Source: Candidatus Bathyarchaeota archaeon
Lineage (GTDB): Archaea > Thermoproteota > Bathyarchaeia > Bathyarchaeales > Bathycorpusculaceae
Length of the DNA stretch: 64,000 bases
NCBI GenBank assembly: GCA_963733095.1
Contig: CAVTBV010000007.1
Span: 32,001 to 96,000 of the forward strand
Direction: 5' to 3'
Under the pieces are notes generated by a model that ran no database searches, was not told where the DNA came from, and saw only the letters and a list, made by a program, of their open reading frames with translations. Positions 18,623 to 56,490 of this stretch are shown one piece after another. The position numbers and the translations under genes are program-made. The stretch's first letter is position 1, and the number at the start of each line of letters is the position of its first letter.

Positions 18623-18670
18623 GGCTGAATTGATGAAAAGCCGCGAAGACCTTGCCGAGCCCTGTACTTG

Positions 18671-18998
18671 TTAATATTGTTAGGTAACTTCAGATTTTGT
18701 TTTTACAGTTCACTAAACTATTTCTTGCTAAAAGCAACCATTTTAGGGGTCTTTGGAGTGAAATAGGGCAAATTTTGGGCTTAATCTTGAAATATATCTT
18801 AATATCTAATTCAAATAATAGAATAATTGAGGCTGCAAAAGGCTCTGTCAACCAGCAAAATAAGGGTTTAGCATTTTTTCCTCTTCTCCTTCAAGTAGTT
18901 AAGAGCCTAAGCAACCCCCTTCTCAAATAAACCTTTAACACTCATAACGTGGGCTGGTCATTCTCTGTTTCATTCATAAAATTGTTTTAATTAGAAAT
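18671..18998. repeat. Non-coding repeat A, copy 1 (diverged)
   Basis: Colinear with 47867..48186 and 38444..38722. Confidence 0.9.
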
Positions 18999-26707: not shown

Positions 26708-26861
26708 CATCAACCAAAAACGTATATGCAGCGCCAGACGCTGCTTCCCAACTTTTTTGTAAACAAAGAATCGCGTTTGTTTTTGGTAGGTAAGGTCATT
26801 CATTACGTTTGATAATTATCTATCAGTGCGCGTGCTCTCTCGGAAAAGCAGAAAAAGCGCA

Positions 26862-27278
26862 GAGGTTCTTTAGGGGATAATAATCGCAGAGAAGACGGAA
26901 GAACCGTGAAGGCCACATGCATAAAACAGAAATATTTCCAGCACCATATTATTGGGTGAGGCTGTTAGGATGAGCCAATACGTTAAGGGAGCTGAACCTG
27001 ACAGGTGGCATTGGATTAAAGATTGCAAGATGTATCCTCGCGTAGTCATCCAGAAAAGAGGCATCAGACCAACTCGTGACCTCTGCGACGAATGCCAGGA
27101 ACTAGAGAAAAAGATACTTCTCAAAACAGCAGCAACATAAACAAAACTTTCTCCCTAAACAAAGAATTGCGATATCAAGGTAGCTTGCGCTCTAAACTTG
27201 AATGGTGGTTTGAGCGGCAGGCAGAGAAGGATTTGAACCCGTCTGAAGTAGAGATGCCACCCGCAAACCTCCTTTTTT
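26862..27278. repeat. Duplicated module B, copy 1 (small gene plus tRNA-like site)
   Basis: Matches 51062..51481. First ~288 bp identical by eye. Confidence 0.95.
26970..27140 (+). CDS. 56 aa putative Zn-binding protein (H-x4-C...CxxC)
   Basis: WHWIKDC...LCDEC. Identical copy at 51170. Confidence 0.7.
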   Translation: MSQYVKGAEPDRWHWIKDCKMYPRVVIQKRGIRPTRDLCDECQELEKKILLKTAAT

Positions 27279-38443: not shown

Positions 38444-38722
38444 TTTGTTTTTACAGTTTATTAAATTGTTTCAGCATAAAGCAACCATTTTAGCGGTCTT
38501 GGGGATGAATTAGGGCAAGTTTTGGGGTCAATATTGAAATACACCTTAATATCTGCTTCCAATACATAATAATTGAGGCTGCAAAAGGCTCCGACAACCA
38601 GAAAATTAAGGGGTTGCATTTTCCCCTTTCTCCTTCTCAAAGTGGTTAAGAGCCAAAGCAGCCCCCCTTCCCAAATAAACTTTTACACTCATATAGCGGG
38701 TTGGTCATCTCTGGTTTATTTA
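38444..38722. repeat. Non-coding repeat A, copy 2 (truncated)
   Basis: Near-identical to the corresponding part of 47867..48186. Confidence 0.92.
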
Positions 38723-38835
38723 GCGCGCTCATTGTCTGTTATACAGGCCACAAACAAAAACAATTTCGGCTCTTTTTGTTTTGTAATGTGCCCATACAGA
38801 TTCTTTTGTGATTCTAACATAAGACAACTCAACAA

Positions 38836-38918
38836 CAAATTGGCTAAAGATATACCATGGCTAAACTAACCCAATAAAATTGGGGTCATTCACTACGCGA
38901 GTTGTCTTACTTTTTAAG
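38836..38918. repeat. Repeat D, shared with 54550..54632
   Basis: aaattggct.aagatataccatggctaaacta...ggggtcattcactacgcgagttgtct.actttttaag. Confidence 0.88.
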
Positions 38919-38927
38919 GCTCCTCTT

Positions 38928-38984
38928 GAGGTTCAAATCCCAGCGGACCCGCCATTGGATTCGCTTAAAACATTAAACGAATCC
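38928..38984 (+). repeat. tRNA 3'-half remnant ending CCA, followed by an 11-6-11 palindrome
   Basis: GAGGTTCAAATCCCAGCGGACCCGCCA, then GGATTCGCTTA-AAACAT-TAAACGAATCC. Confidence 0.8.
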
Positions 38985-42331: not shown

Positions 42332-43366
42332 TCAATGAATGATAGTTATGGCTTCAGGATCAGCAATCATTAAGCCGTTTAAGTAAATGTAAGTCAGGAA
42401 GTTAGGCACTGAGTTTGCATCTGTCAAATTATTGCCTATTAGCCATTGGGCTTCATCCTGCAAAGCCAAAATTTGAGCCTGATCAAGAGAAACCGAGAAC
42501 TGATAATCTGACCAAACAGTTGGTAAGTACGAGCTGGAATAATTTAGGGCGTTAGTTACTATGGCGATGGATTGGTTTTGATGGGTTAAAAGATAGTTTT
42601 GGGCTTGAACCATTGATTTTAAGAATCTTACAATTAAGTCAGGATTTTGCTGCGCCCAACTATTCGTGCAGATCAAGTCCACATAAGCAAGCTGATTGGA
42701 TTGCACTTGCCACTCTACAACCTTATTTCCCAAGGAGTTTTCAATTTCGTTTACGTACGGTTGAAGCGTTACTACGGCATTAACTGAGCCATTTGCCAAA
42801 GCATTCTGAGCCCCTGTCAGGGGAACATTAACGAGTGTTACGTTACTAGGGTCTACACCGTTTAGGTCAAGAAATCTGCTAAGGTAGAATTCTCCGATAG
42901 TTCCGAATGCAACGCCTATTTTTTGACCATTCAGGTCCGAAATTTTATTAATGCCTTGGTCTGTTCTTGCAATCACATAGAAGCTTTGGAACTTGCCTAT
43001 AGATGCGAACGTGCAAAGGCTCGCATTGCCTAATGCTTCTTCGGCAACAACGAACTCGGCTGCCACTGCCAGGTTTACCTCACCGTTGAGCATCCCTTCT
43101 GCGGCGGCTGCACCTGACGCATAGTCTTTGAAGATTATGTTTAGACCGTTATTGACGAAATATTTCTGGTCTAGAGCTACGTAAATTAATGAACTTGTTT
43201 CGTTGGGAAGTATTCCTAACGTTACTGATTCGACTTTTCCTGAGTAAGGTTTTTGAGAATTAATGAAAACAAATGAACTTAAAACAATAGTTGATACCAA
43301 GATTATAACCGCTAAGGCCACCAAATTTCGCCTCTTCAGCGTCACCATCACAAACGTCCTCGACAA
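42332..43366 (-). CDS. SsuA/NMT1/THI5-like substrate-binding protein (paralog)
   Basis: YVALDQKYFVNNGLN, GQKIGVAFGT. Confidence 0.9.
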   Translation of the reverse strand: MSRTFVMVTLKRRNLVALAVIILVSTIVLSSFVFINSQKPYSGKVESVTLGILPNETSSLIYVALDQKYFVNNGLNIIFKDYASGAAAAEGMLNGEVNLAVAAEFVVAEEALGNASLCTFASIGKFQSFYVIARTDQGINKISDLNGQKIGVAFGTIGEFYLSRFLDLNGVDPSNVTLVNVPLTGAQNALANGSVNAVVTLQPYVNEIENSLGNKVVEWQVQSNQLAYVDLICTNSWAQQNPDLIVRFLKSMVQAQNYLLTHQNQSIAIVTNALNYSSSYLPTVWSDYQFSVSLDQAQILALQDEAQWLIGNNLTDANSVPNFLTYIYLNGLMIADPEAITIIH

Positions 43367-43473
43367 GAAATTTGATTGTTTAAAGTAAACATTGAACGTA
43401 TTTATGAATATCTAAATAACGGCAAAAACACATTTTTCTGATTTTGACTAACTAAGAATGTTTACTGAATTAA

Positions 43474-43512
43474 GGGTTCGCTTAGACATTTAAGGCATCC
43501 CAGCGGACCGCT
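43474..43512 (+). repeat. 11-6-11 site fused to a tRNA 3' remnant
   Basis: GGGTTCGCTTA-GACATT-TAAGGCATCCC-AGCGGACCGC. Confidence 0.7.
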
Positions 43513-43700
43513 CCTTGGTGTTCCGGGAAAGACGGCTTCAAAGCTTGATTAAAATTTGCGAAATTGCCTTAACCGGCAAGTTTGAGCAAAGGGGCCAGAC
43601 CGTTTCTGGGTAAGCATGTTAGAGACTTAATCTGGTTTATGATTGAATCCAACCTATCAACAAAAGAAGGGGGAACTGTGTGTTTGGTTGGCTAGTATTT

Positions 43701-44570
43701 CTAAGCCGCGGGTTGGGTTGTCTGGGGTGCTGATTCTTGGGGTGAAGTTTTTCCTTCGAAGAATGCCAGGAGGTCTTCGTTGATTTGCTGCTTGTGTGTG
43801 GTGCACATGCCATGTGGGGCGCCTTTGTAGATTTTAAGGGTTGCATTCTTGATGATTTTGGAGGAGAGCATTGCCGAGTCTGCGATGGGAACGATTTGGT
43901 CATCGTCGCCGTGAAGAATCAAGGTTGGCACATCGATTCTTTTGAGGTCTTCGGTCATGTCTGTTTCTGAGAATGCTTTGATGCAGAAATACGCTGCTGG
44001 AAAACCTGCCATCATGCCTTGATGCCAGAAATTCTCGCGCACGCCTTCCGAAATTTTCGCGTTTGGTCTGTTGTAGCCGTAGAATGGCATTGATAGGTCT
44101 TTGAAGAATTGTGAACGGTCGGCAATGACGTTTGCGCGTATTTGGTCAAAAGCTTGTATTGGTAATCCACCGGGATTGGCTGCTGTCTTAACCATTATTG
44201 GTGGAACCGCGCCGATTAGAACGGTTTTCGCCACTCTTTTGTTTCCATGGCGACCTATGTATCTTGTAACTTCGCCGCCGCCAGTGGAATGACCGACTAA
44301 TATTACGCTTTTTAAGTCAAGTTTTTCGATGAGCTCATTTAGGTCATCCGCGTAGGTGTCCATGTCGTTTCCGTTCCAAGGTTGACTTGAGCGCCCATGC
44401 CCTCGACGGTCATGTGCAATGCAGCGGTAGCCTTTGGGCACTAGATAGAACATTTGATCTTCAAAAGCGTCTCCGTTTAGCGGCCAGCCATGACTGAAAA
44501 CAACGGTTTGCCCTTTGCCCCAATCTTTATAATAAATTTTCGTACCATCTTTGATAATAATATTAGGCAT
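43701..44570 (-). CDS. Non-heme haloperoxidase / arylesterase
   Basis: [35 protein letters not shown]. Confidence 0.93.
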
Positions 44571-44713
44571 TTCAAAAAACTCCTGTTCCAACAAAAGGAG
44601 CATAAGTATTTTAGCATTTGTGACGTCGCACCAACTATAACAGGTGTCAACTTCGACTGTTTGCTACGTCAACAGAGCTCCTACTGATTATAGCATTCTC
44701 GACCTTACCTTTT

Positions 44714-44868
44714 GGGGTCTGGAACCCAGCGGGCCTGCCATCGCCGAGTGAATATGTACTTTTAGCGCGAAAAAGGAAGGCGGCTACAGATGATGTCTCC
44801 CTTCTTAGAGTATAACGCAACGGCTACTCAACTTACCAGGGGGTGAAAATTCGAAGCCCACCTCCAGT
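44714..44868 (+). repeat. Composite site: tRNA remnant, motif C, repeat G core, second T-arm remnant
   Basis: ...ACCCAGCGGGCCTGCCA; GAAAAAGGAAGG..TGATGTCTCC; GCAACGGCTACTCAACTTACCAGGGGG; TTCGAAGCCCACCTCCAG. Confidence 0.65.
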
Positions 44869-44953
44869 TTCTCAGTTACATCGTATAGATTCAATTCTTG
44901 CCAAAGCGTTCTTATCCATCATTTATTACCAAAGTGATAGACCTGAAGCCAGT

Positions 44954-46054
44954 ATGAGAAAAGACGCTTTCCTAAAACCGCTCCCATTCATTCTAGTTGT
45001 TATGCTTTGCATGACTTCCCTTATAGTGACTGTGCGAGCTGAAAGTTGGAGCTGGAGTAAAGTGGCAAGCCCCGCAGGGGAATATCTATCAGTGGATATG
45101 GTCAACTCATATGATGGGTGGGCAGTGGGATTTGACGGAGCCATAATTCATTGGGACGGAAAAAGCTGGAACAATGCGGCCAGTCCAACCAGTTATAAAT
45201 TAGTCTCAGTGGATATGGTGAGCTCTACTGAAGGATGGGCAATTGCCCAAAGAATAGACGGTTACCAGACTAATCAGTCAGTAATCAGATGGGACGGAAA
45301 AAGCTGGAACAATGTAACAAGCTCAACCGCAGCCATGCTAACATCCGTGGATATGGTTAACTCAACTGACGGATGGGCAGTGGGATATGGTGGCATGGTA
45401 ATTAGATGGAATGGAACAAACTGGAACCTTGTGGAAAGCCCCATCAATAATCCGTGGGAATCGGTAGATATGGTTAACTCAACTGACGGATGGGCAGTAG
45501 GGAGAAGAGCGCAGTATACAGGCATTAACAGTATAATCCATTGGAACGGAACTATCTGGAACCTAGTAGAAAGCCCAAAAATCGTTGGAACTCGAACATT
45601 ATGGTCAGTTGATATGGTGAGTTCAACTGACGGATGGGCTGTTGGTGATAGCGGAATAATAATCAGGTGGGATGGAACGAGCTGGAACAAAGTAATAAGC
45701 CCCATTCCAGTTACCAAACACTTGTTTTCGGTGGATATGGTTAACTCAACCGACGGATGGGCGGTGGGCTCAGATGGATGTATAATCCATTGGGATGGAG
45801 CAAGCTGGAGCAACGTTACGAGCCCAACTGGAGCTTGGTTGTATTGCGTGAATATGGTTAGCTCAACAGATGGGTGGATAGTAGGAGCCGATGGAATATA
45901 TCGTTGGCAGGAAGTTACTGGTTTTCCTACTGATTACTTTATTATCATAATCGCAGTTATCGTTGCCGTTATCGTGGTTGTTTGGTTTTTTATAAGAAAT
46001 AAGCAAGCCCAAAAACGCACTAGAAGAGTAGTTCTCGAAGAGGGTTCGAGGTAA
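44954..46054 (+). CDS. Membrane-anchored beta-propeller repeat protein
   Basis: Seven repeats of SVDMV(N/S)STDGWAVG..G.IIxWxG; C-terminal TM. Confidence 0.9.
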   Translation: MRKDAFLKPLPFILVVMLCMTSLIVTVRAESWSWSKVASPAGEYLSVDMVNSYDGWAVGFDGAIIHWDGKSWNNAASPTSYKLVSVDMVSSTEGWAIAQRIDGYQTNQSVIRWDGKSWNNVTSSTAAMLTSVDMVNSTDGWAVGYGGMVIRWNGTNWNLVESPINNPWESVDMVNSTDGWAVGRRAQYTGINSIIHWNGTIWNLVESPKIVGTRTLWSVDMVSSTDGWAVGDSGIIIRWDGTSWNKVISPIPVTKHLFSVDMVNSTDGWAVGSDGCIIHWDGASWSNVTSPTGAWLYCVNMVSSTDGWIVGADGIYRWQEVTGFPTDYFIIIIAVIVAVIVVVWFFIRNKQAQKRTRRVVLEEGSR

Positions 46055-46131
46055 CTGCTGCTTAAAATGCCAGGGGTGTAGCTTCTATGTCCTGCAAGCT
46101 TCATCTTTCTTGGAGAGTTAAACTCCCCATC
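46040..46131 (+). repeat. Repeat G, inverted relative to 53141..53236
   Basis: gagggttcgagg.aac.gctgct.aa..tgccagggg..tgtagcttctat.tcc.gcaagcttcatctttcttggagagttaaactcc. Confidence 0.9.
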
Positions 46132-46264
46132 ATAGGTACAATTTGCTGCTTAGAGTTCGGTTCCCCAGATATGTTCCTACTTATGGCAATATGTTGTAGC
46201 CAGTTATCAATCACAAAAGGTTAACTTTCAAGCGCCAGTTAATCTTCTTGAGGTTTAGTTATTT

Positions 46265-46669
46265 ATGGAAAAAGAACTACTTTTTGAAGGAAAAGAAAAC
46301 ACCAGCTCAGTCAACATAAAGGAATTCACTCCAGCAGGCGTAAGGCTTGAAATCACAGTCGCAGGTAAAGTTAGCGGCAAAGTGGCTGGACAAATTATGT
46401 CTACACATAACATTCTCATGAAGCCAGGTGGAACAAGCGATCTTGACCTGAAATCAATCATATTCAGCAATGGCGAACCTATCTTCGTAATGGGAAAAGC
46501 CAGCGGTAAACTCATAGACCCAACTCCTATTGGACAGATTGAGGCAAACCTGACATTCCAGACCCCTTCTCAAAAACTGGCATACTTAAATACAGCCAAA
46601 GGCTGGTCAGAAGCAACATACAACATGGCAACAGGCGAATACACCTTTAAGGTCTATGCCGTCAAATAG
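46265..46669 (+). CDS. Hypothetical beta-rich protein
   Basis: 134 aa ORF followed by a T-run. Confidence 0.75.
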   Translation: MEKELLFEGKENTSSVNIKEFTPAGVRLEITVAGKVSGKVAGQIMSTHNILMKPGGTSDLDLKSIIFSNGEPIFVMGKASGKLIDPTPIGQIEANLTFQTPSQKLAYLNTAKGWSEATYNMATGEYTFKVYAVK

Positions 46670-46739
46670 CACCAACGATCATCCTTTTTTCATTCTTTAG
46701 TCGCATAAATCAGTAGTTCTTTCAAATGTTACATTGGGG

Positions 46740-46786
46740 AAAAAGGGGAAAAGGTGGGTGACATCTCCGCTCTAGTAAGAGTCCAA
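46740..46786 (+). repeat. Motif C copy
   Basis: AAAAAGGGGAAAAGGTGGGTGACATCTCC. Confidence 0.7.
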
Positions 46787-47007
46787 CGATATTCAAGTTA
46801 TCGTCCAAAGCAACTCAAATGTCAATCCCCAATACAATTAGTAATATGGATGCAGAGGGTTCGGTTCCCAACCGTATACACTTTCAGGCTAAAACAAATG
46901 TACAACTCGGAACTTGCTATTTTCTCTGCAATGATGTTTACTATCTCTATGGCAAGCATTAAATAGCTAACAATCTGATAGACGCTAACCTGGAGAAAGG
47001 GGTCAAA

Positions 47008-47274
47008 ATGGAGTCATACAAAAAGAACGCAATAGCTGCGGGAGTATTATTTGTAATTGCAGACCTTGTAGGTTTTGTGAGCTTACCCTTTATACAACCT
47101 ATGAATGATACGAATTATCTTGTAAGTGTTTCTGCAAATGCAAACAGGGTAACTACAGCAGCCCTTCTTTTGTTCATCGGTGCAATGCTTAACGTGCCAA
47201 GGTTTCTCTTCCCTGGAATAGTTGTTGGCTATCTGTACAAAAGGCTGCACGAATCAGGAATGGCTAAGAAATAA
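47008..47274 (+). pseudogene. Truncated DUF4386-like membrane protein
   Basis: N-terminus KNAIAAGVLFVIA...YLVSVSANANRV, then ends early. Confidence 0.5.
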
Positions 47275-47295
47275 AGTTGGAAAGAAGGGTTTTCG

Positions 47296-47778
47296 ATGAA
47301 GTGCTTGCTAATTGTGTATTCTTACCATCACAACAACACCCAAAAAATAGCAGAAGTCTTCGCAAAGGTGCTTGATGCGGAAATTAGAACTCCCCAGCAG
47401 ACTAACCCTGAAGAGCTTCAAGATTATGACTTAGTAGGCTTTGGGTCAGGGATAGACACTGACAAAAACTACAAAGAACTCCTTGACTTTGCAGATAGAC
47501 TACCTCAAGTCACAGACAAGAAAGCATTCGTCTTCTCAACCAGCGGAATGCCCGTTGGAATTTCAAGTCAACAGCGATTGGAAGAGTACACAAGCAAATG
47601 TCATACGACTCTTAAAGAAACTCTTCAATCCAAAGGCTACACGATTGTTGACGAGTTTGGTTGCGCGGGTTTCAACACTAACAAATTTCTCAAGTATTTT
47701 GGTGGAATAAACAAAGGAAGACCTAATGAAGAAGACCTCAAACACGCCGAATCCTTTGCTGAGAAGCTTAAAGTTTAA
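47296..47778 (+). CDS. Flavodoxin-like protein
   Basis: YSYHHNNTQKIA, DLVGFGSG, FVFSTSG. Confidence 0.9.
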   Translation: MKCLLIVYSYHHNNTQKIAEVFAKVLDAEIRTPQQTNPEELQDYDLVGFGSGIDTDKNYKELLDFADRLPQVTDKKAFVFSTSGMPVGISSQQRLEEYTSKCHTTLKETLQSKGYTIVDEFGCAGFNTNKFLKYFGGINKGRPNEEDLKHAESFAEKLKV

Positions 47779-47866
47779 GCCAGAAAAAATTGGTGCCTTG
47801 GCGAGCTATCTGCGTAAGACGTACTTAAGTCTCAGAGTCATGAAACTTCAATATTTAGTTGTGTTC

Positions 47867-48186
47867 TTAATATTATGGTAACTTCAGATTTTGTTTTTAC
47901 AGTTCACTAAATTTTTTCTGCATAAAGCAACCATTTTAGCGGTCTTGGGGATGAATTAGGGCAAGTTTTGGGGTCAATATTGAAATACACCTTAATATCT
48001 GCTTCCAATACATAATAATTGAGGCTGCAAAAGGCTCCGACAACCAGAAAATTAAGGGGTTGCATTTTCCCCTTTCTCCTCAAGTGGTTAAGAGCCAAAG
48101 CAGCCCCCCTTCCCAAATAAACTTTTACACTCATATAGCGGGTTGGTCATTCTCTGGTTTATTTATGAAATTGTTTAATTAGAAAT
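47867..48186. repeat. Non-coding repeat A, copy 3
   Basis: Colinear with copies 1 and 2. Confidence 0.92.
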
Positions 48187-48287
48187 TAAAAAACTGGCTG
48201 AGATTTTATTTTTTGTTAACCTATTATGTTTATTGTGTAGAATACTGGTTTTTGGATGCTAAAAAAAGAGAAAGAAAGGTTTAGTGT

Positions 48288-50003
48288 TTATCTGGGTATC
48301 TTTAGGGTTATCGCTGTTGTGTGTGTAGTTGTTCCATCGGTTCCTTGGATGGTGATTGTGTAGGTCCCTGTTTGAGTAAATCTTGGCACAGTAATTGTTA
48401 AAGTTGAAGCTGTAGCTTGAGATGTTATTGTTACGGGGTTTGTGCTAAAGCTGTATGTTACACCTGTTGGCGTGTCACTAGTAGCTGAGAGGGTGACTTT
48501 GCCTGTGTAGCCGTTGATTGGGGATATGGTGATTCTGTCGGTTCCTGATCTGCCTGTTTGGATGTTTAGGTTTGTTGAACTTGCTGATAGTGAGTAGTCA
48601 GTGGGCGATGTTACTTGTACGTTTATGGTTATTGGGTGGGTTATTGCTGGATTGCTGTTGTCAGTGCCGGTTATCATTACTTGGTAGGATCCCGCTGCGG
48701 TGCCTGCTGGTATTGTGAGGGTTGCTGTTTCAAAGCCCGTTATGGACGATGGGTCAATTGATACTCCAGTTATTCCTGTGGCTGTTAGCTGGACTGTGTC
48801 GGAGAAGCCGCCAACTGAAGCGATGGTTATGGTTGAGGTTCCTTGGCTACCGTAGGGTATTGTTAATGTTGGTGGGTTGGCTGAGATTGTGAAGTCTGGT
48901 TGTGGTGGTGCTGCAAAGTTGGTTGTTAGTGGGCTGCCTATTCCTGTGGTCAGATCATATCCTGTTCCTGCTGAGTAGCCGCCGCTTTGACCAATGGTTA
49001 CGTCTCTAAAGTCTGCGGAATAACTAGTTGTTGAAGCGTAAAGGCTGTAGAGGTTAGTGCTGGTTGCTGATTTTCCGAGGGCTTGGATTGCTGCCCATTG
49101 AGGTGCTCCTGCACTGGTGCCGCCGACGACGTACCAACCCTTTGTTGGCATGAAGGTGTCGTATACTGCGAATCCTGTGTTTGGATCGGCGTTGAATGAA
49201 ACGTCTGGTGTTGCCCTGTGTTTGTAGCCTAAATTGGCTATGGCTTGGCCTGAGGATACTGGTTCATAGCTGCTTACTCCGCCGCCGCTTCCGCTCCAAG
49301 CTGTTTCTGACCACTGGCCGTTGGTGTTTGTGAGGGTTGTGCCTCCTACTGAAATGACGTTTGCGCTACTGCTTGGCCAGATGATTGCTCCGCCGGTATC
49401 GCCTGATGCAGCAAAGAATTGTACGCCTGTGGTGCTTGTGAAGTAGCTGTCGTAGCTGGTTTCGCTTGAGAATTCATTTCCGCCCCAGCTCATGGAAACA
49501 GACACTACTCCGGGTTGGCTTTTTGCATAGATGACTGCGCTAAGTAAGTCATTTAAGCTTGCAGATCTCGCTTCGACGAGTAAGATTTTTGCTTCTGGAG
49601 CTATGGCGTGTGCCCATTGAACATCGAGTGCTTCTTCCATTCCCCAGTTGTAGTCATTGGAAATGCGACTTGACATCTTATGTATAGTTAGACTTGGGGT
49701 TGGTAGGTTGTTGTATGTTGAGAAATAAGCGAGGTCAGAGGCTAAGTTTGGGTTGTTGTATGCGTCCACTATCGCGATTGTTGTTCCAGCTCCTCCATCC
49801 GAGGGAAGGTTGTATGCTGTTTTAATGTCAGAAGGCCAGTAAACCACTGTGCCGCTTGTTGCTTGCTGCTTTATGTGGTGCATTGGTTGTGCTTGCCAAT
49901 CTGTTGTTTGCGCGTTTACAAGTGAAGGTGCGATTGCTAAAATCATGAGGAACATTAAGGTTAGAGTTAATATTTTCAGCGTTATTTTCGCCAATTTCTT
50001 CAT
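48288..50003 (-). CDS. Secreted S53 (sedolisin-like) peptidase with two C-terminal beta-sandwich repeats
   Basis: EEALD, ASGD, GGTSAGAP, GYDLTTGIGSP. Confidence 0.92.
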   Translation of the reverse strand: MKKLAKITLKILTLTLMFLMILAIAPSLVNAQTTDWQAQPMHHIKQQATSGTVVYWPSDIKTAYNLPSDGGAGTTIAIVDAYNNPNLASDLAYFSTYNNLPTPSLTIHKMSSRISNDYNWGMEEALDVQWAHAIAPEAKILLVEARSASLNDLLSAVIYAKSQPGVVSVSMSWGGNEFSSETSYDSYFTSTTGVQFFAASGDTGGAIIWPSSSANVISVGGTTLTNTNGQWSETAWSGSGGGVSSYEPVSSGQAIANLGYKHRATPDVSFNADPNTGFAVYDTFMPTKGWYVVGGTSAGAPQWAAIQALGKSATSTNLYSLYASTTSYSADFRDVTIGQSGGYSAGTGYDLTTGIGSPLTTNFAAPPQPDFTISANPPTLTIPYGSQGTSTITIASVGGFSDTVQLTATGITGVSIDPSSITGFETATLTIPAGTAAGSYQVMITGTDNSNPAITHPITINVQVTSPTDYSLSASSTNLNIQTGRSGTDRITISPINGYTGKVTLSATSDTPTGVTYSFSTNPVTITSQATASTLTITVPRFTQTGTYTITIQGTDGTTTHTTAITLKIPR

Positions 50004-50364
50004 TCTCCATGCATTTTTTGTTAAAATTGCTATTAAATTCTTGTTGATGTTCTAAGCATATAAGCGTTATCTTTGTATGATGGTTAGCTATACTTTTTGT
50101 CAGGCAAAAACTAGCGGGCAACATGGCATTTAACTCGTGTTTACATTATGGCATGTGTTGATGATGTATTAGGAAAAAAATGCGAGCAATAGCTGAAACA
50201 AATCATCGCCTTTTGTTCGAGTTCTTTAAGAATTAATGGAATAAGAGGTGGGTAATTAGGGTTGGAAAAGGAAAAAAGGGATTGTTCACTGACTTCAACT
50301 ATTAAGGGAATAGCAAATTAGAAAAGGAAGATTTGAGCTAGTGATCTCTTAGTTTACTTTAAGT

Positions 50365-50766
50365 CTAGGGTGGCATGTCAGGCTGCAGAAGTCCAAAAGA
50401 GTTCCCTTCTGGGTCCGCGACTACTGCAAACCAGCCTACTGTGGGTATTTGTTTTTTTGGAACCAAGATCTTTCCGCCTTCTTTCGTAACCTTATCTGTG
50501 TATTTGTCGATGTCTTCTACGCTGATGTAATTGACTTGTGGAGCGCTTTGCATTCCTTGAGTACGCGGGTATAAGCCACCGTTAACGCCTGGGCGCTGAA
50601 GCATTCCTTTCTCGTCGATGGGAACCGTAGCTATATTGTAGTATTCGACATCTGGCATGGAGGTTTTCGTGATTTTCCATCCGAGGACATTTTCATAGAA
50701 TTTTTGCAGTTTCTTAACATCATTTGCAGGAATTTCAAAATGAACAACTGTATGATCCATTTTCAA
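50365..50766 (-). CDS. VOC/glyoxalase family protein
   Basis: VVHFEIPA...KFYENVLGW...DPEGN. Confidence 0.92.
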   Translation of the reverse strand: MKMDHTVVHFEIPANDVKKLQKFYENVLGWKITKTSMPDVEYYNIATVPIDEKGMLQRPGVNGGLYPRTQGMQSAPQVNYISVEDIDKYTDKVTKEGGKILVPKKQIPTVGWFAVVADPEGNSFGLLQPDMPP

Positions 50767-51061
50767 ACAACTCTTTGTTTAGGATTTCAAAGTTTGCCGT
50801 TAAGTTAAAACTATGTGTTTGTTCTATGCCTACCACAAGCAGTTAAGCCTTAAGCATGTAGAATCAAAAAATACTACTTGTCGCACCGAAACTGGAGGCT
50901 GCATCTGCGCTTGTGGTGCAGACGGGTTTTCGGGAAGTTGATGTCCGTGGTTATTTTCACTGGGCTCTTACGGACAATTATGTGGGAAAAAGGGTTTGGT
51001 CAGAAGTTTGGATTGTTCTGTTGACTTATGAGACTAAGTCTTGGAAAGCAGGAAAAAGGGG

Positions 51062-51481
51062 GAGGTTCTTTAGGGGATAATAATCGCAGAGAAGACGGAA
51101 GAACCGTGAAGGCCACATGCATAAAACAGAAATATTTCCAGCACCATATTATTGGGTGAGGCTGTTAGGATGAGCCAATACGTTAAGGGAGCTGAACCTG
51201 ACAGGTGGCATTGGATTAAAGATTGCAAGATGTATCCTCGCGTAGTCATCCAGAAAAGAGGCATCAGACCAACTCGTGACCTCTGCGACGAATGCCAGGA
51301 ACTAGAGAAAAAGATACTTCTCAAAACAGCAGCAACATAAACAAAACTTACTCCCTAAACAAAGAATTGCGATATCAAGGTAGCTTGCGCTCTAAAACTT
51401 GAATAGTGGTTTGAGCGGCAGGCAGAGACGGATTTGAACCCGTCTGAAGTGGAGATGTCACCCGCAAATCTCCTCTTTTTT
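51062..51481. repeat. Duplicated module B, copy 2
   Basis: Matches 26862..27278. Confidence 0.95.
51170..51340 (+). CDS. 56 aa putative Zn-binding protein (identical to 26970..27140)
   Basis: Identical translation. Confidence 0.7.
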   Translation: MSQYVKGAEPDRWHWIKDCKMYPRVVIQKRGIRPTRDLCDECQELEKKILLKTAAT

Positions 51482-51650
51482 ATGGGCTTAGGAAAAAAGC
51501 GATAACTATTCTCTAGTTCTGGGGATGGGCTTTTGAGTTGATGTACGATTCCCTACCCCGCTTAGGCTTCAAGGGAGTGGTTTGCATAGGTTATTACCGA
51601 CCCTCCAGTAGCTTGACTGGCTTATAAAAATGAGCATCACCCGCCACCTT

Positions 51651-51707
51651 GGGGTTGGATTCGAACACTCTGTGGATGGAGAAATCACCCGCAAAACTCT
51701 CCTTTTT
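51651..51707 (-). repeat. Motif C plus T-arm remnant
   Basis: Reverse complement AAAAAGGAGAGTTTTGCGGGTGATTTCTCC-n-GTTCGAATCCAACCCC. Confidence 0.8.
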
Positions 51708-51759
51708 GTTTAACATATAGCGCGCGCTATCACAGGGTATTTTTTCAAGCTATTTTTCA

Positions 51760-52221
51760 CTACCACTTATGTACTCTCTTCTTATAATCGCTGTATTGTT
51801 GACCCAGTATTCGTGTCAGGTCTTTTTCCTCATACGTTGCCATCTTATCAATGAAGATGAAGAATGCAATCCACACTATGAAGGACAGGATTGAGAGTGT
51901 GGCTATCGAGAAGCCTAATAGGATTAGCAATTCTCCCAGATACATTGGGTGTCTAACCCTTCCGTAGACTCCTATATCGATAACTTTTCCCTCGGTGTTG
52001 CTGAATACTACTGCTGCAGATTTTCTCACAAAATAGACTCCAACTATGAAGGAGATGACTCCGATGGGGACTGATGCAAAGAGTGATGTTAATCCTAACA
52101 GGTTTAACGTATAGTGTAGTAAGAAGGAATCTATTCCCCAGATTATCAAGAAAATAAACGCGAAGACGACTTGTGCACTATCGTTAATGGGGTTCTCTGC
52201 ACCGATACCATGACGTGACAT
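51760..52221 (-). CDS. Isoprenylcysteine carboxyl methyltransferase family protein
   Basis: GVYGRVRHPMY, EEKDL...G..Y.DYKKRV. Confidence 0.9.
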   Translation of the reverse strand: MSRHGIGAENPINDSAQVVFAFIFLIIWGIDSFLLHYTLNLLGLTSLFASVPIGVISFIVGVYFVRKSAAVVFSNTEGKVIDIGVYGRVRHPMYLGELLILLGFSIATLSILSFIVWIAFFIFIDKMATYEEKDLTRILGQQYSDYKKRVHKW

Positions 52222-52251
52222 AGTTATCAGATTCTCATCTGTCTTGGCATT

Positions 52252-52638
52252 TTAGGTTTCTGTTTTTGGGTCAACAGCTTTTTTTTCGAGCATTAAACCA
52301 ATGATGGTTGGTGCGATGATGCCTATAAAATATGGAATCCACGTTCTAACATCTGAGAAGTAGCTAAACCCTGTGAAGGGTACTGCAACAAAGCAGACGT
52401 CAAGTAGAATAAAAAAGCCTGCCCAAACTGCACCTATAGTTAATCCCTTCCTAAAACTAAGAGGTTTAGCTATAAATGCGAACGCAAAAACAAGTGCAGT
52501 CACAAAAACTGTTGTTACAACCCAAACCCACCAAACGTTTGAGTCGAAGCCAAGCAATACTATGGCTGCAACCTCTAAAGAAATGATGACATAAATTAAA
52601 ATGGGGTAAAGAAGGAGCTTCTTTAAATCTTTAGGCAT
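52252..52638 (-). CDS. 4-TM hypothetical membrane protein
   Basis: Hydrophobic 128 aa ORF. Confidence 0.75.
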   Translation of the reverse strand: MPKDLKKLLLYPILIYVIISLEVAAIVLLGFDSNVWWVWVVTTVFVTALVFAFAFIAKPLSFRKGLTIGAVWAGFFILLDVCFVAVPFTGFSYFSDVRTWIPYFIGIIAPTIIGLMLEKKAVDPKTET

Positions 52639-52777
52639 AAGCTAAATTGTTTATCTATCTAGTTTATTTATGTTTTTTGTAAATGAATCATACGGCGGTA
52701 AAACCCTTGTGCTGTTTGTGTTCTTTAAGCATCGTTTAACGCTTGTTTCTTTTGCCATTTGCGCCTTTTTCCGTGGA

Positions 52778-52803
52778 TGGTGGACTCGCTGGGATTTGAA
52801 CTC
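52778..52803 (-). repeat. tRNA 3'-half remnant ending CCA
   Basis: Reverse complement GAGTTCAAATCCCAGCGAGTCCACCA, beginning on the last base of the upstream gene's TAG. Confidence 0.8.
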
Positions 52804-52988
52804 TATTTTCTCGATCTCCTTACCAAGTAAAAAAGATTCATAACCAATGAAAGACCGATCATTATTCCTTCAACGAAAGCTGAAATAGAAAAGCCCAAAT
52901 ACTCAAAATCTGTAAAGCGCCCTAAAAGAATCCCGATAGCTAAAGAAATCATGCCTATTGACAAGGCAGTTTCATCCTTAAGCCCCAT
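52803..52988 (-). CDS. Small 2-TM protein
   Basis: 61 aa; GGTGA upstream. Confidence 0.7.
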   Translation of the reverse strand: MGLKDETALSIGMISLAIGILLGRFTDFEYLGFSISAFVEGIMIGLSLVMNLFYLVRRSRK

Positions 52989-53136
52989 CTAATTCACCAA
53001 GAATAATAGTAAGCCTTTTTCAATTAAGATTTTTTGGTCGTTTGATCCTGTACTGCAGAAAAAATAATTCCCACAAATTCTTCCATCCATAAGGAGCTTG
53101 CAGGGGAACCAAATCCCAAACTTCAAAATAGAAATT

Positions 53137-53273
53137 GTGCTGGGGATGGAGTTTAACTCTCCAAGAAAGATGAAGCTTGCGGGATATAGAAGCTACACCC
53201 CCCTGGCAACTTGAGCAGCCGTTGCCTCGAACCCTCTGTGATTGGAGAAATCACCCGTACCACCTCATTTTTC
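53137..53273 (-). repeat. Motif C plus repeat G plus tRNA 3' remnant
   Basis: Reverse complement GAAAAATGAGG..ACGGGTGATTTCTCC..GAGGGTTCGAG...GAGTTAAACTCCATCCCCAGCAC. Confidence 0.85.
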
Positions 53274-53280
53274 ATTAAAA

Positions 53281-53462
53281 ATACAGGGCGATTTGGTATT
53301 GCTGATTCCGCAACAACCTACGAGTATAAACGCTCCTTTGGGGTTGCGTGAGAAAGGAACGGTACCCTGAGCTTCGGCAAGACGGGAGGCGTATTTCACC
53401 CCAAAGCCTGCATCTAAGACCAGATAAGGCAACGTTAGATCTCGCTTGCCCGCCCCACGTAT
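53281..53462 (-). ncRNA. Candidate structured non-coding RNA
   Basis: GC-rich island with nested helices (GGGGCG/CGCCCT, CTTTGGGG/CCCCAAAG, TTGTTG/CAGCAA, GCCT/AGGC). G-U pairs favour the minus strand. Confidence 0.45.
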
Positions 53463-53505
53463 AATACTTCATAAAAACTTCGTTGTGATGGTTGGATGAG
53501 TTTAT

Positions 53506-53805
53506 TCATGATGTAGCAACAACCTCTCCATCGTAGGTTTGCAGGACAAGCTTATTCCAAATACCGCTTTCCCGCAACCAGTTTCTATAGTTTTCAGCTC
53601 CTACTTTTCCCAGCTCCTCGGATTGCCATTCAGCTACGGCTACTGTTACTTCTGCGCTGGCACGCATCAGCCTATAACTTATGAACCCCGCCTGCTTCTG
53701 GAAAACCTTAATGCCTTCATTATTTATCCTTTCAAATACCTCCTCTGCCTCAGGTGAACTGAGGTCTATACTCCATTTCCCTATGGAACAACGAAGATAC
53801 GTCAA
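53506..53805 (-). CDS. ABM/dimeric alpha-beta barrel protein
   Basis: QAGFISYRLM...VAVAEWQSEE. Confidence 0.75.
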   Translation of the reverse strand: MTYLRCSIGKWSIDLSSPEAEEVFERINNEGIKVFQKQAGFISYRLMRASAEVTVAVAEWQSEELGKVGAENYRNWLRESGIWNKLVLQTYDGEVVATS

Positions 53806-53971
53806 AAAATTTTCACCCTTGAAGGTTTAGAACAACGCCATAATTAACAATTTTGCTGAAAAGCGCTTTAAATGTCTGATTGAGTCACTTCTCGTTTCTT
53901 GGCATTAGTTGATTCGCATCGCATCAGCTGGTGAATAGGGAACCGAACCTTGACCATCCATCTCAGTATTT

Positions 53972-54035
53972 GTACTGGGGATGGGGGTTGAACCCATGAC
54001 AGGCTCGGGATTTCACTCGCATAACCCCCTTTTTC
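53972..54035 (-). repeat. Motif C plus complete T-arm and acceptor strand
   Basis: Reverse complement GAAAAAGGGGGTTATGCGAGTGAAATCCC-n-ATGGG-TTCAACC-CCCAT-CCCCAGTA. Confidence 0.8.
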
Positions 54036-54074
54036 TAATTCAGTTATTAGGTTGTTAGGCTGCTTTGTCTTTTC

Positions 54075-54410
54075 TTATTCAGGTTGTTCGCCATCTCCAC
54101 ATGCTAGTCCAGTCATAGCTTTGACGTAAGCTGATGCTTCTTTAAATGTCTTGAATGGTCCATAAAAGAAGTCGTATTGAGAATGGGATTCTTTGGTGGG
54201 TTGCGTATCAGACTCGATAGTTTCGGGTCTCTTTCCTTCTTTAAACCCTAAGTAAATTTGCAAGTCATTAACGCCTTTTAGTATTTCATACGACGAAGTG
54301 ACAGGTACAACTTTATTTAGCATTCCGCCTACGGACCAGTATTTTTCTTCGGAGAGTTTGATTGAACATTCTCCATCTCGAGGCGTCCACTCGCGAAACC
54401 CTTTGGGCAC
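54075..54410 (-). CDS. Hypothetical protein
   Basis: 111 aa; YDFFYGPFKTFKEA. Confidence 0.65.
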   Translation of the reverse strand: MPKGFREWTPRDGECSIKLSEEKYWSVGGMLNKVVPVTSSYEILKGVNDLQIYLGFKEGKRPETIESDTQPTKESHSQYDFFYGPFKTFKEASAYVKAMTGLACGDGEQPE

Positions 54411-54545
54411 TATTTTTTCTCGCGTTTTTTGCCTAATTTGATTAAGCTTCTGACTCGCTGCCCTCCGCGTTGGCCGGCTTCTTCTAAGCTGACTTTTTCC
54501 CGAGCTCCTTTTGAGCCTTCATGCTGCTTGGCCCGTTTGGCGCCG
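54410..54545 (-). pseudogene. 5'-truncated KGG/general stress protein-like remnant
   Basis: SLEEAGQRGGQRVRSLIKLGKKREKK*. No in-frame start seen before it runs into repeat D. Confidence 0.5.
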
Positions 54546-54751
54546 ACGACAAATTGGCTTAAGATATACCATGGCTAAACTACCCCAACAAACTCGGGGT
54601 CATTCACTACGCGAGTTGTCTCACTTTTTAAGCCTGTCTTCGCTTTGCCCCCAACTAATACCGTGTGTAGCTAATGCGGTTTTTCTAAAAGAGGGTTAAA
54701 GCCCAATACTAATTAGCTTAGACGCCTAGAAATGTAAGTTGGTAATCAAGT

Positions 54752-55666
54752 TTGCCTGAGTTTCTTGTCGGCACTGGCGGTTGGGCTTACTTCAAAGTTC
54801 CAAACAAGTCCTCTCTTAAGGCATACTCTGAAGTGTTCAACTTTGTAGAAGTCAACTATACATTCTATGAATATCCCTCAGTTCAGGCGGTTCAAAGATG
54901 GCGCAAGACTGTTCCGAGTGATTTTACTTTTTCAGTTCGATGCCACCAAGACCTAACCCACAGCAAAGGTTTTGTACCTACCAGTCAAGCTTACGAAGTA
55001 TTCTATCAAATGAGAAATTATTGTAACCTGCTCAACTCTCCATACTTAGTTTTTGAAACACCCGCCAAATACGAGATTAATCAGGAGAATCTGCAGGATG
55101 CAAAAGATTTCTTTTCTTCTTTAAATTTTGATGGATTGAGGCTGGTTTGGGAGTACAGGGCACCTATAACTCAAACAGTCGTTGACCTCATGGAGGATTT
55201 TGACATTATTCAATGCGTTGACCTATCAAGGCAACGTCCAGGTTACAGTGTGGATGTTACTTATTCAAGGCTGTTTGGCAAAGGGCAGCACAACATCTAT
55301 CAATTTAGCGACGTTGAATTGGCAGAGATAGATCATAAAGCTCAAGAAACAAATTCCAAAACAGTAATTTTATCATACCACGGCTTGAGAATGAACTCCG
55401 ACGCCATACGCTTCAAGCACTACAAGAGCACAGGGCACTTTCTCCCCGTTACTTCTTACACAGGTGTTGATTCCGCGAGAGCAGTCTTAGCTGAAGATAT
55501 GACTTTTCCGGCTTCGAAAGCCGAGTTGAAAGCTAAGCAAGGATGGAAAGTCATCGACGCAAGCAAGGATAGACGAGTGCATCTTTTTGAGTTCTTGGAC
55601 AAGATTCCTGACAAAACATATTCTAACGTTGATGAGGTCATTGAAGAGTTGAGGGCGATGTTTTGA
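54752..55666 (+). CDS. DUF72 domain protein with C-terminal DUF2795-like domain
   Basis: VGTGGW.Y, FVEVNYTFY; tail FPASKAEL...IPDKTYSNVDEV. Confidence 0.85.
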   Translation: MPEFLVGTGGWAYFKVPNKSSLKAYSEVFNFVEVNYTFYEYPSVQAVQRWRKTVPSDFTFSVRCHQDLTHSKGFVPTSQAYEVFYQMRNYCNLLNSPYLVFETPAKYEINQENLQDAKDFFSSLNFDGLRLVWEYRAPITQTVVDLMEDFDIIQCVDLSRQRPGYSVDVTYSRLFGKGQHNIYQFSDVELAEIDHKAQETNSKTVILSYHGLRMNSDAIRFKHYKSTGHFLPVTSYTGVDSARAVLAEDMTFPASKAELKAKQGWKVIDASKDRRVHLFEFLDKIPDKTYSNVDEVIEELRAMF

Positions 55667-56490
55667 GCAACGAAAATATTCTTCTTGGAACCTGTGGCTG
55701 GAGCTACAAGGAATGGGAAGGTGTCTTTTACCCCAAGAAAAACATCGAAAGCAAGCTCAGGGCCTATTCAAGAATTTTTAAAACCGCTGAGATAGATTCA
55801 ACCTTCTACCGTAATCCAACAAAAGGCACAGTTATGGGTTGGCTTAGGTATTCGCCTCCAGATTTTGTGTTCACGGCTAAACTGCCCAAAACTATAACGC
55901 ATGACAACATGCTTGGATTAAAGAAAGAGGTTAAGGCAGACTTGGAGGTTTTCTTGGATTTGATGAGGCCGTTGCTGCTTGGGGGTAAACTCGGTTGTCT
56001 GCTTATTCAGCTACCGCCAAAATACTCCTATAACCCTGAGAACCTTGAAGCATTCTTTGGGATGCTTGATCCAACTTTTCGTTACGCGGTGGAATTCAGA
56101 AACGTCACGTGGATATTGCCGGAAACCAAGACATTCGAACTTCTAAAGCAATATGGGGTTGCTTACACGATTGTTGATGAGCCGCTTCTGCCCCCAGAAG
56201 TTCATCTAACGACTGATTTCGCCTATTTTCGTTGGCATGGCAGAGGTGATGACATTTGGTTTGACTACCTTTACACTGAAGAAGAATTGGCGCCTTGGGT
56301 GCCAAAGGTCCAGGAAGCAGCCAAGAACGTCAAGAAAGTCTACGGATACTTCAACAATCACTATCACGGCTACGCGCCTGAGAATTGCCTGCAAATGCTT
56401 GAAAAACTTAATTTGCTGTCAGAAAACCAAAGGAAGGTCAAGTATAAACCGAAGACTAAGCAAGCCCAGTTAGGATCATTCTTCAATTAG
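55663..56490 (+). CDS. DUF72 (YecE-like) protein
   Basis: GTCGWSY, EIDSTFY, QLPP, AVEFR, YFRWHGR, YFNNH. Confidence 0.92.
   Translation: MSNENILLGTCGWSYKEWEGVFYPKKNIESKLRAYSRIFKTAEIDSTFYRNPTKGTVMGWLRYSPPDFVFTAKLPKTITHDNMLGLKKEVKADLEVFLDLMRPLLLGGKLGCLLIQLPPKYSYNPENLEAFFGMLDPTFRYAVEFRNVTWILPETKTFELLKQYGVAYTIVDEPLLPPEVHLTTDFAYFRWHGRGDDIWFDYLYTEEELAPWVPKVQEAAKNVKKVYGYFNNHYHGYAPENCLQMLEKLNLLSENQRKVKYKPKTKQAQLGSFFN

Follow-up and report, generated by a model that had tools for sequence, protein, structure and literature searches.

An array of single genes and tRNA 3′-end-bearing sites in a Bathyarchaeia genome, probably a pile-up of small integrative units

Bathyarchaeia are abundant, uncultured archaea whose gene exchange is poorly known. 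The stretch of DNA described here (the window; 64,000 nucleotides, nt) comprises positions 32001-96000 of contig CAVTBV010000007.1 (C7) from a Candidatus Bathyarchaeota archaeon (GCA_963733095.1, below G000; 2.84 Mb in 16 contigs). Between positions 44714 and 54410, it holds an array of unrelated small genes and short sites that carry the 3′ ends of tRNAs (Table 1). We read this region as probably a pile-up of small integrative units, produced by tyrosine-integrase recombination at tRNA 3′ ends. Feature coordinates are window positions unless prefixed by a contig (C7, C9, C13 and so on); G001, G002, G010 and the like denote other genomes, and 30 relatives were compared with the region.

Table 1. 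Sites, site fragments and genes of the array. E, expectation value; nt and aa after a percentage, nucleotide and amino-acid identity.
Feature	Position	Strand	Parts and matches
Degenerate candidate site	44766-44846	+	purine run, ...GATGTCTCCC, then 28 nt (44819-44846) like the site B extension; by eye
Site-B-type copy without purine tract and module	46040-46165	+	joined to the propeller gene at its 3′ end
Site	46737-46869	+	profile E 3.5e-7 for 46737-46769; purine tract 46737-46753; core TGGGTG 46755-46760; module to 46769; unrelated ~55 nt in place of T-arm; Cys-like acceptor end 46825-46835; tail to 46869
Site D	51417-51482	-	profile E 1.9e-12; purine tract 51482-51469; core CGGGTG 51464-51459; module; degenerate T-arm; acceptor-like strand
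Conserved ~125-nt unit after site C	51518-51640	-	TATA-like box TTTTTATAAG 51630-51621; ends in Cys-like acceptor CCCATCCCCAG, 51529-51519
Site C	51651-51709	-	profile E 2.7e-12; purine tract 51709-51697; core CGGGTG 51691-51686; module; T-loop GTTCGAATCC
Bare T-loop/acceptor fragment, Arg-ccg/Pro type, without module	52778-52801	-	E 0.013
Site B	53104-53272	-	profile E 1.3e-9; purine tract 53272-53262; core CGGGTG 53257-53252; module to 53243; T-loop 53234-53225; ~75-nt extension; Cys-like acceptor 53151-53139; tail to 53104
Site A	53938-54035	-	profile E 0.002; purine tract 54035-54025; module variant, core CGAGTG 54019-54014; T-arm 53997-53981; tRNA-Cys-type acceptor 53980-53974; conserved tail ends GGTTCGGTTCCC 53949-53938
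Membrane-anchored beta-propeller protein, 403 aa	44843-46054	+	PF14870 1.2e-8
134-aa protein, no family	46265-46669	+	within shared block 46181-46722
Flavodoxin-like protein, 160 aa	47296-47778	+	PF12641
571-aa secreted protein, no clear family	48288-50003	-	between two arrays
Glyoxalase/VOC protein, 133 aa	50365-50766	-	PF00903
PEMT/ICMT-like methyltransferase, 153 aa	51760-52221	-	PF04191; 80% nt in G009
128-aa membrane protein	52252-52638	-	94% nt in G010:C9
Two-helix membrane open reading frame, 61 aa	52803-52988	-	
ABM-like protein, 99 aa	53506-53805	-	PF03992 E 0.0012, below cut-off
111-aa protein, no family	54075-54410	-	80% nt in G011

The cargo of the array consists of ordinary accessory genes. 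In addition to the matches in Table 1, a C-terminal fragment of the flavodoxin-like gene lies in an array on C13 (84% amino-acid identity), the glyoxalase/VOC gene recurs in G010:C2 and G001:C3 (84-87% nucleotide identity), and the ABM-like gene recurs in an array on G001:C6 (73-74%). No conjugation genes were seen among the open reading frames scanned with Pfam. The initial annotation had described the sites as co-oriented with the genes that they follow, which is true of all six gene-site pairs in the window but is no rule beyond it: orientation is mixed on C13, and the genes run opposite to the sites on C3 and on G162:C43, a contig from another genus. Two sites had also been said to overlap stop codons. 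In one case they do, as the TAA of the propeller gene (46052-46054) is enclosed by the site at 46040-46165, whose tail AGTTCGGTTCCC occupies 46154-46165; in the other, the fragment running from 52801 to 52778 begins 2 nt past the TAG of the two-helix reading frame.

The sites share a common plan, in which a purine tract (AAAAARGGG) is followed after ~4 nt by a module, (T)GCGGGTGAYWTCTCCA, and then, after ~8 nt, by a T-loop (GGTTCRAATCC) and an acceptor 3′ strand. Family members are ~60-75 nt long, the 15-nt module CGGGTGAYWTCTCCA and its ~8 nt leading into a T-arm and acceptor 3′ strand that correspond to various tRNAs; module-bearing members are referred to as type-1 sites. A repeat search recovers the shared stretches as families D4, D5, D8 and D10 and inverted pairs I1-I3, I5 and I9. 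Following a regular-expression scan, an nhmmer profile was built from 24 site copies, and at a cut-off of E 0.01 it has 29 matches in G000, six of them on C7 (five within the array) and none on nine of the contigs. Mapped genome-wide in this way, the sites are clustered rather than evenly spread: 23 of the 29 have a neighbour within 10 kb (mean 4.9 and maximum 14 in 2000 random placements), and 15 of 16 adjacent pairs agree in strand. A stop-free frame of at least 150 aa holds one of the 29 sites, compared with 753 of 1000 random positions. A conserved peptide beginning at the purine tract plus NTG was considered and rejected by eye, since the T-loop frames differ and the peptides stop after 14-40 aa.

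Of the nine places first named as sites, eight are repeats or copies of tRNA 3′ ends; the ninth, 44714-44868, returned only its self-match when searched against the genome for repeats. Site A agrees with the 3′ end of tRNA-Cys at 22 of 23 nt (53975-53997, BLAST), and its tail is 80% identical to 46825-46869 (inverted pair I2). The bare fragment reproduces the T-arm and acceptor of tRNA-Arg-ccg at 17 of 17 nt (52785-52801, BLAST). The extension of site B recurs at 46040-46139 (90% over 90 nt), C13:28760, C9:265514 and C9:228513. Five Cys-like acceptor ends occur in the window, at 53980, 53151 and 51529 on the minus strand and at 46130 and 46825 on the plus strand. Site D starts a 435-bp unit (51045-51479) that has a second copy at 26845-27278 with 97% identity; its upstream boundary falls at GCGGGTG, and a zinc-ribbon-like reading frame of 62 aa lies on the opposite strand. 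The ~125-nt unit that follows site C has 84-90% matches in G001, G002, G004 and G016, and the DNA upstream of eight copies viewed in G001, G002 and G016 is unrelated; the unit could represent either a gene for a small RNA or an element end that carries a promoter.

Some of the sites match tRNAs of the host. When its tRNA set was searched against G000 with BLAST, 41 fragments were found, mostly 3′ ends and two of them in the array, and 9 of the 29 profile matches overlap one of these 3′ ends (types Leu, Ala, Pro, Cys and Arg). The sites are not tRNA genes. ARAGORN finds 42 tRNA genes in G000, several of them intron-bearing, and the Rfam tRNA model (RF00005) has 45 matches genome-wide, yet neither program finds a tRNA in the window (0 of the 45), and Rfam models including RF00005 gave no match in 43000-56000 at E up to 10. 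An ARAGORN tRNA-Asn with a 2779-nt intron (C7:48190-51063) was rejected for its poor fold. None of the 21 PF00589 matches of the genome lies on C7, in keeping with the earlier statement that the window lacks both an integrase and an intact tRNA.

An anchored counterpart of the array is found in G002. There, the intact tRNA-Cys of contig C3 is followed, in order, by a 1.3-kb unit, a Cys fragment, a 4.2-kb unit, a full site and a convergent integrase fragment. The last gene of the 4.2-kb unit is a homologue of the propeller gene (72%), and its stop codon is followed by a complete site, which reproduces the tRNA-Cys 3′ end at 24 of 24 nt and whose flank is similar to the sequence downstream of the genuine tRNA-Cys gene. 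This site is a textbook attR that closes an integrase-less unit of a tandem array downstream of tRNA-Cys. Compared with it, the window junction at 46054 misses ~60 nt, and the T-loop there overlaps the stop codon because of this deletion. A second anchored case lies on C9 of G000, where a tRNA-Leu-tag (224497-224584) is followed by sites with Leu-type ends at 229786 and 231096. The only tRNA-Cys gene of G000 stands at a contig break (C10:9925-9998 and C11:2-75; C11 ends at the tRNA 3′ end), which fits variable DNA downstream of tRNA-Cys in the sampled population. The initial view of the sites as recombination junctions bearing tRNA 3′ ends is supported.

The units between sites are small, and most lack an integrase. 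The 16 inter-site intervals of G000 measure 0.2-9.1 kb, and an integrase was found in only two, which agrees with the integrase-less units proposed before; such arrays also occur elsewhere in G000 and in other genera. For example, G162:C43 has six modules on one strand within 9.9 kb, its genes lying on the other strand, and none of eight reading frames scanned there encodes an integrase. The exact 18-mer of the module is present in 21 of 301 Bathyarchaeia genomes scanned, representing 14 of 107 genera, and a reversed control had no match anywhere. A 16-mer scan of IMG/VR gave 84 matches, which is about the estimated chance level, and a full site in three only. One IMG/VR contig (L103; 13,339 nt) carries genes of head-tailed viruses (tail tube, gp10-like, tail proteins), followed by a type-1 site and a 316-aa integrase.

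The integrases of the two intervals (424 and 458 aa) match PF00589 and are Xer-like, with a XerA score of 60 bits against a cut-off of 220; their family is here named Int-A. No Int-A gene lies in the window, and a comparison of Int-A with NCBIfam gave no integron-integrase match. About 95 nt upstream of each gene stands a purine tract-TG-CGGGTG followed by TACACTTTACTATTAGTTGG, and 2.1-2.5 kb past each stop codon stands ...AAGTGTT-CGGGTG-AYATCTCCA-T-arm; the attL form of the element reads purine tract-TG-CGGGTG-TACAC.... These flanking junctions (C13:17686/14192 and C9:114644/118629) indicate that an element of 3.5-4 kb has split a type-1 site at CGGGTG. Splitting of the 424-aa gene itself by integration was considered and rejected, as its reading frame is whole and starts ~95 nt after attL. 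Among 27 further Int-A loci, attL was found in 21 and attR as well in 12; the core, CGGGTG or CGGGAG, is identical at both ends in all 12, and so in 14 of 14 elements overall. Int-A elements span 3.5-8.7 kb and end in inverted repeats of ~20 bp. Within the same draw of 301 genomes, Int-A (E 1e-40) occurs in 5 of the 21 module-positive and 7 of the 280 module-negative genomes. The matching junctions show the module arm to be the chromosomal target of this second, Xer-like integrase family, elsewhere in G000 and in other Bathyarchaeia. The initial annotation had described the tRNA-end part of the sites but missed both this conserved upstream module and the integrase family that targets it. The element on C9 also carries an AbiV-type HEPN gene (PF18728, E 2.9e-11) directly after its integrase (C9:116134-116682; L140:10135-10683).

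Comparison of gene content between genomes gives a mixed picture. Synteny of the region with the 30 relatives was not found, and single genes match scattered contigs at 72-94% identity. A block containing the 134-aa gene (46181-46722) is 88-89% identical in G010 and G001; in the window, it begins just past an acceptor end and stops ~15 nt before a purine tract. In G010:C13, a CGGGTG core flanks the block on either side, the left one lacking a purine tract and the right one a module remainder, whereas in G001:C3 it lies ~150 nt downstream of a tRNA-Ser-like 3′ end (by eye). The right flank of the G010:C13 insertion consists of the end of a 489-aa gene, and a search for the corresponding empty site found no comparable junction in G000. 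A further breakpoint in the window, between the genes for the 128-aa membrane protein and the methyltransferase, has no site. Breakpoints coincide with sites sometimes: the coincidence expected earlier is seen for block 46181-46722 and for the 435-bp unit, but not for the block that holds the 128-aa membrane gene (52246-52678).

Under the accretion reading, each site would be an att junction in which an element-side arm (purine tract, module and ~8 nt) is joined to a crossover segment formed by the T-arm and acceptor. Most sites in the window are of the tRNA-Cys type, and several sites are followed by a conserved element-side tail. The units, most of them small and without an integrase, would have accreted one by one, and such serial accretion would leave co-oriented junctions with cargo in between. 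As nearly all units lack an integrase, any movement would need an integrase made elsewhere in the genome. Later deletions would have fused two of the junctions to the stop codons of upstream genes, and the opposed halves of the region could reflect either an inversion between sites or separate insertions. Several observations weigh against this account. With neither an intact tRNA nor an integrase in the window or on C7, the array is unanchored here. Neighbouring sites carry differing tRNA-type ends, so a single tRNA target is insufficient as an explanation. The module is better conserved (1.63 bits per column) than the tRNA part (0.87 and 0.35), which is not expected of simple scars, and no integrase fragment was found 3′ of the type-1 sites in G000. 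Moreover, homology of block 46181-46722 ends short of a site on both sides, and the G010:C9 copy of block 52246-52678 (94% identical) is flanked by unrelated DNA, without a site on either side.

In the strongest form of a more active system, Bathyarchaeia would possess a cassette system of their own, a functional integron analogue that arose independently from tRNA att sites. A ~35-nt module (purine tract and TGCGGGTGAYWTCTCCA) fused to a tRNA 3′-end mimic would serve small integrase-less cassettes as recombination site, Xer-like integrases such as Int-A, cutting at CGGGTG, would move them in trans, and the arrays would be active platforms of gene shuffling; we regard this as tentative and, on balance, unlikely. 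A closely related version is rather unlikely as well: the whole site would belong to the cassette as its recombination site, Int-A or another Xer-like integrase would recombine sites at CGGGTG, integrase-less circles would excise and re-insert in trans, and arrays would grow wherever a site exists. The joining by Int-A inside the module with matching cores, the superior conservation of the module and the enrichment of Int-A in module-positive genomes are all consistent with such a system, as are the repeated 435-bp unit with its GCGGGTG boundary, the 134-aa gene unit of G010:C13 with CGGGTG on both sides and the integrase-free arrays in another genus. Against it, 16 of the 21 module-positive genomes lack Int-A at E 1e-40, although metagenome-assembled genomes are incomplete; the attP of Int-A has 20-bp inverted arms that the sites do not have; in the one good case, the homology of the cargo stops before the site is reached, on both sides; gene orientation is variable; and no circular junction or deletion joint was seen, the public reads yielding only contigs of 150-475 nt. 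Nine public runs were listed with part of the window, the best with 0.28 of the sampled words, and no RNA run was listed; the contigs of the four runs examined hold no joints at this length and are uninformative on excision either way. Loose read-contig ends at 51657/51697 match another G000 copy, C9:264484.

Two further explanations concern the sites themselves. The module could be the cut-off promoter, leader and ribosome-binding region of an integrase gene overlapping attP, in the manner of class I elements of the Sulfolobus spindle-shaped virus (SSV) kind, integration having orphaned the module together with the tRNA end. In L103, a PF00589 reading frame (the 316-aa integrase) indeed starts at a T-stem GTG 12 nt past the module and reads through the T-arm; the module contains GGTGA, and a purine tract plus NTG resembles a translation start; TG precedes CGGGTGA in 16 of 24 aligned copies, the letter before it being A, G or T but never C (by eye); and a tRNA-Gln of G000 runs in frame into an integrase N-terminal fragment. 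That example is a tRNA-Gln(ctg) at C11:42695-42767, in frame with a 114-aa fragment (to 43109) in an SSV-like arrangement. This origin is nonetheless improbable, since an integrase frame passes through only one of 45 sites examined (L103) and through none in G000, type-1 sites of G000 are not followed by integrase fragments, and in G000 the full-length integrases next to tRNAs are convergent with their tRNA or lie upstream of it rather than starting at a site. Among the tRNA-adjacent integrases of G000 are those at C14:10561-11436 and C5:11479-12357. Highly improbable, in our view, is that the sites are small tRNA-like RNA genes or processing signals (tRNA 3′ halves, minihelices), or a self-spreading repeat akin to repetitive extragenic palindromic (REP) sequences or miniature inverted-repeat transposable elements. 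The sites are strictly intergenic and oriented, and the ~125-nt unit at 51640-51518, with its TATA-like box and tRNA-acceptor-like end, is conserved in several genomes; but Rfam is silent on the region, single-strand folds of four sites with DNA energy parameters are no better than shuffles (z -0.90, +1.58, -0.94 and -0.94), eight minihelix-like stem copies have no compensatory changes (by eye), and the G002 copy downstream of tRNA-Cys has a genuine attR context.

The accretion of tRNA-targeting units can be placed among known systems. Gene capture in archaeal chromosomes was reportedly treated by She et al. in 2001. Archaeal tyrosine-recombinase elements are reported to form arrays by re-using one site and to lose their integrases after integration (PMC6563490, PMC8371274). 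These arrays at archaeal tRNA genes, whether class I (SSV-like) or class II (pNOB8-like), share partial tRNA 3′ direct repeats, stacking and integrase loss with the present array (PMC6563490, PMC8371274), in which the direct repeats of host tRNA 3′ parts are represented by site A and the Arg-ccg fragment. In contrast, units here are tiny (0.2-4 kb, often one gene) and nearly all without an integrase, one element-side arm is conserved across differing tRNA ends and at least 14 genera, and the window array has no anchoring tRNA. An intact target tRNA at the array end is present in G002:C3 (Cys) and on C9 of G000 (Leu), and the G002:C3 array has an integrase fragment at its distal end, while neither the window nor C7 has the integrase gene typical of such elements beside an att site. 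In bacteria, cis-mobilizable elements (CIMEs) and the site-specific accretion of integrative and conjugative or integrative and mobilizable elements reportedly involve integrase-less, att-bounded DNA that gathers beside integrase-bearing elements at a tRNA-type site (PMC5704250, PMC7563491). The units described here likewise have att-site flanks and no integrase, replication or transfer genes, but they differ in their archaeal host, in the many units per array and in the lack of conjugation genes among the reading frames scanned. On the best reading, then, accretion of tRNA-targeting, mostly integrase-less units is a kind of process already described for archaea (PMC6563490, PMC8371274) and, reportedly, for bacterial CIMEs.

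The initial annotation had instead proposed an archaeal integron analogue. Integrons have been reported in Archaea (10.1101/2022.02.06.479319), and the likeness is real in so far as small, unrelated, mostly single-gene units each stand beside one site and the core used by a tyrosine recombinase is short and conserved. However, no IntI and no attI/Pc platform was found, the four folded sites give no attC-hairpin signal, gene orientation is not fixed, and the integrase is carried by an element of its own that ends in inverted repeats; compared with the integron-integrase model, the L103 integrase reaches 44 bits (cut-off 265). On the defining features tested, the array does not qualify as an integron, and the initial interpretation is supported in part. 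Some insertion sequences target REP sequences or bacterial interspersed mosaic elements (BIMEs), and Int-A resembles them in inserting at a fixed point of a dispersed intergenic repeat; unlike them, Int-A belongs to the tyrosine recombinases, not the DDE transposases, and has an attP-like core, and the repeat is an att junction. The conserved module arm and the insertion of Int-A into it appear to be new: neither was met in the literature looked at, which was not queried by module sequence or integrase family name.

These observations offer several uses. Single accessory genes (methyltransferases, glyoxalase, flavodoxin, propellers and small membrane proteins) that lie between recombination-type sites recur elsewhere in other species, and the module together with the Int-A attP core provides short DNA substrates for in vitro recombination as well as a signature for mapping the variable regions of Bathyarchaeia genomes. 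If cassettes do move in trans, they would represent a second route to integron-like capture of genes, one that evolved independently.

Other repeats accompany the array. At the junction of its oppositely oriented halves lies a repeat of ~290 nt (47890-48165), with further copies at 38444-38722, 18668-18998 and C7:98364-98648 (96% and 84% identical); it contains a minus-strand reading frame of 75 aa and has a weak Rfam match to Atu_C9 (23 bits against a cut-off of 40). Beyond the last gene, 54411-54545 is the 3′ part of a gene for a small basic protein (...GQRGGQRVRSLIKLGKKREKK) present at no fewer than seven loci of G000 with 75-86% identity, and one such copy adjoins the site at C13:471252. 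Finally, a 90-nt repeat (38832-38955 and 54547-54636, 91%) stands ahead of a tRNA-Arg-tct 3′ end, which at 38930-38955 is retained at 25 of 26 nt; the repeat and this end constitute another type of element arm, without the module.

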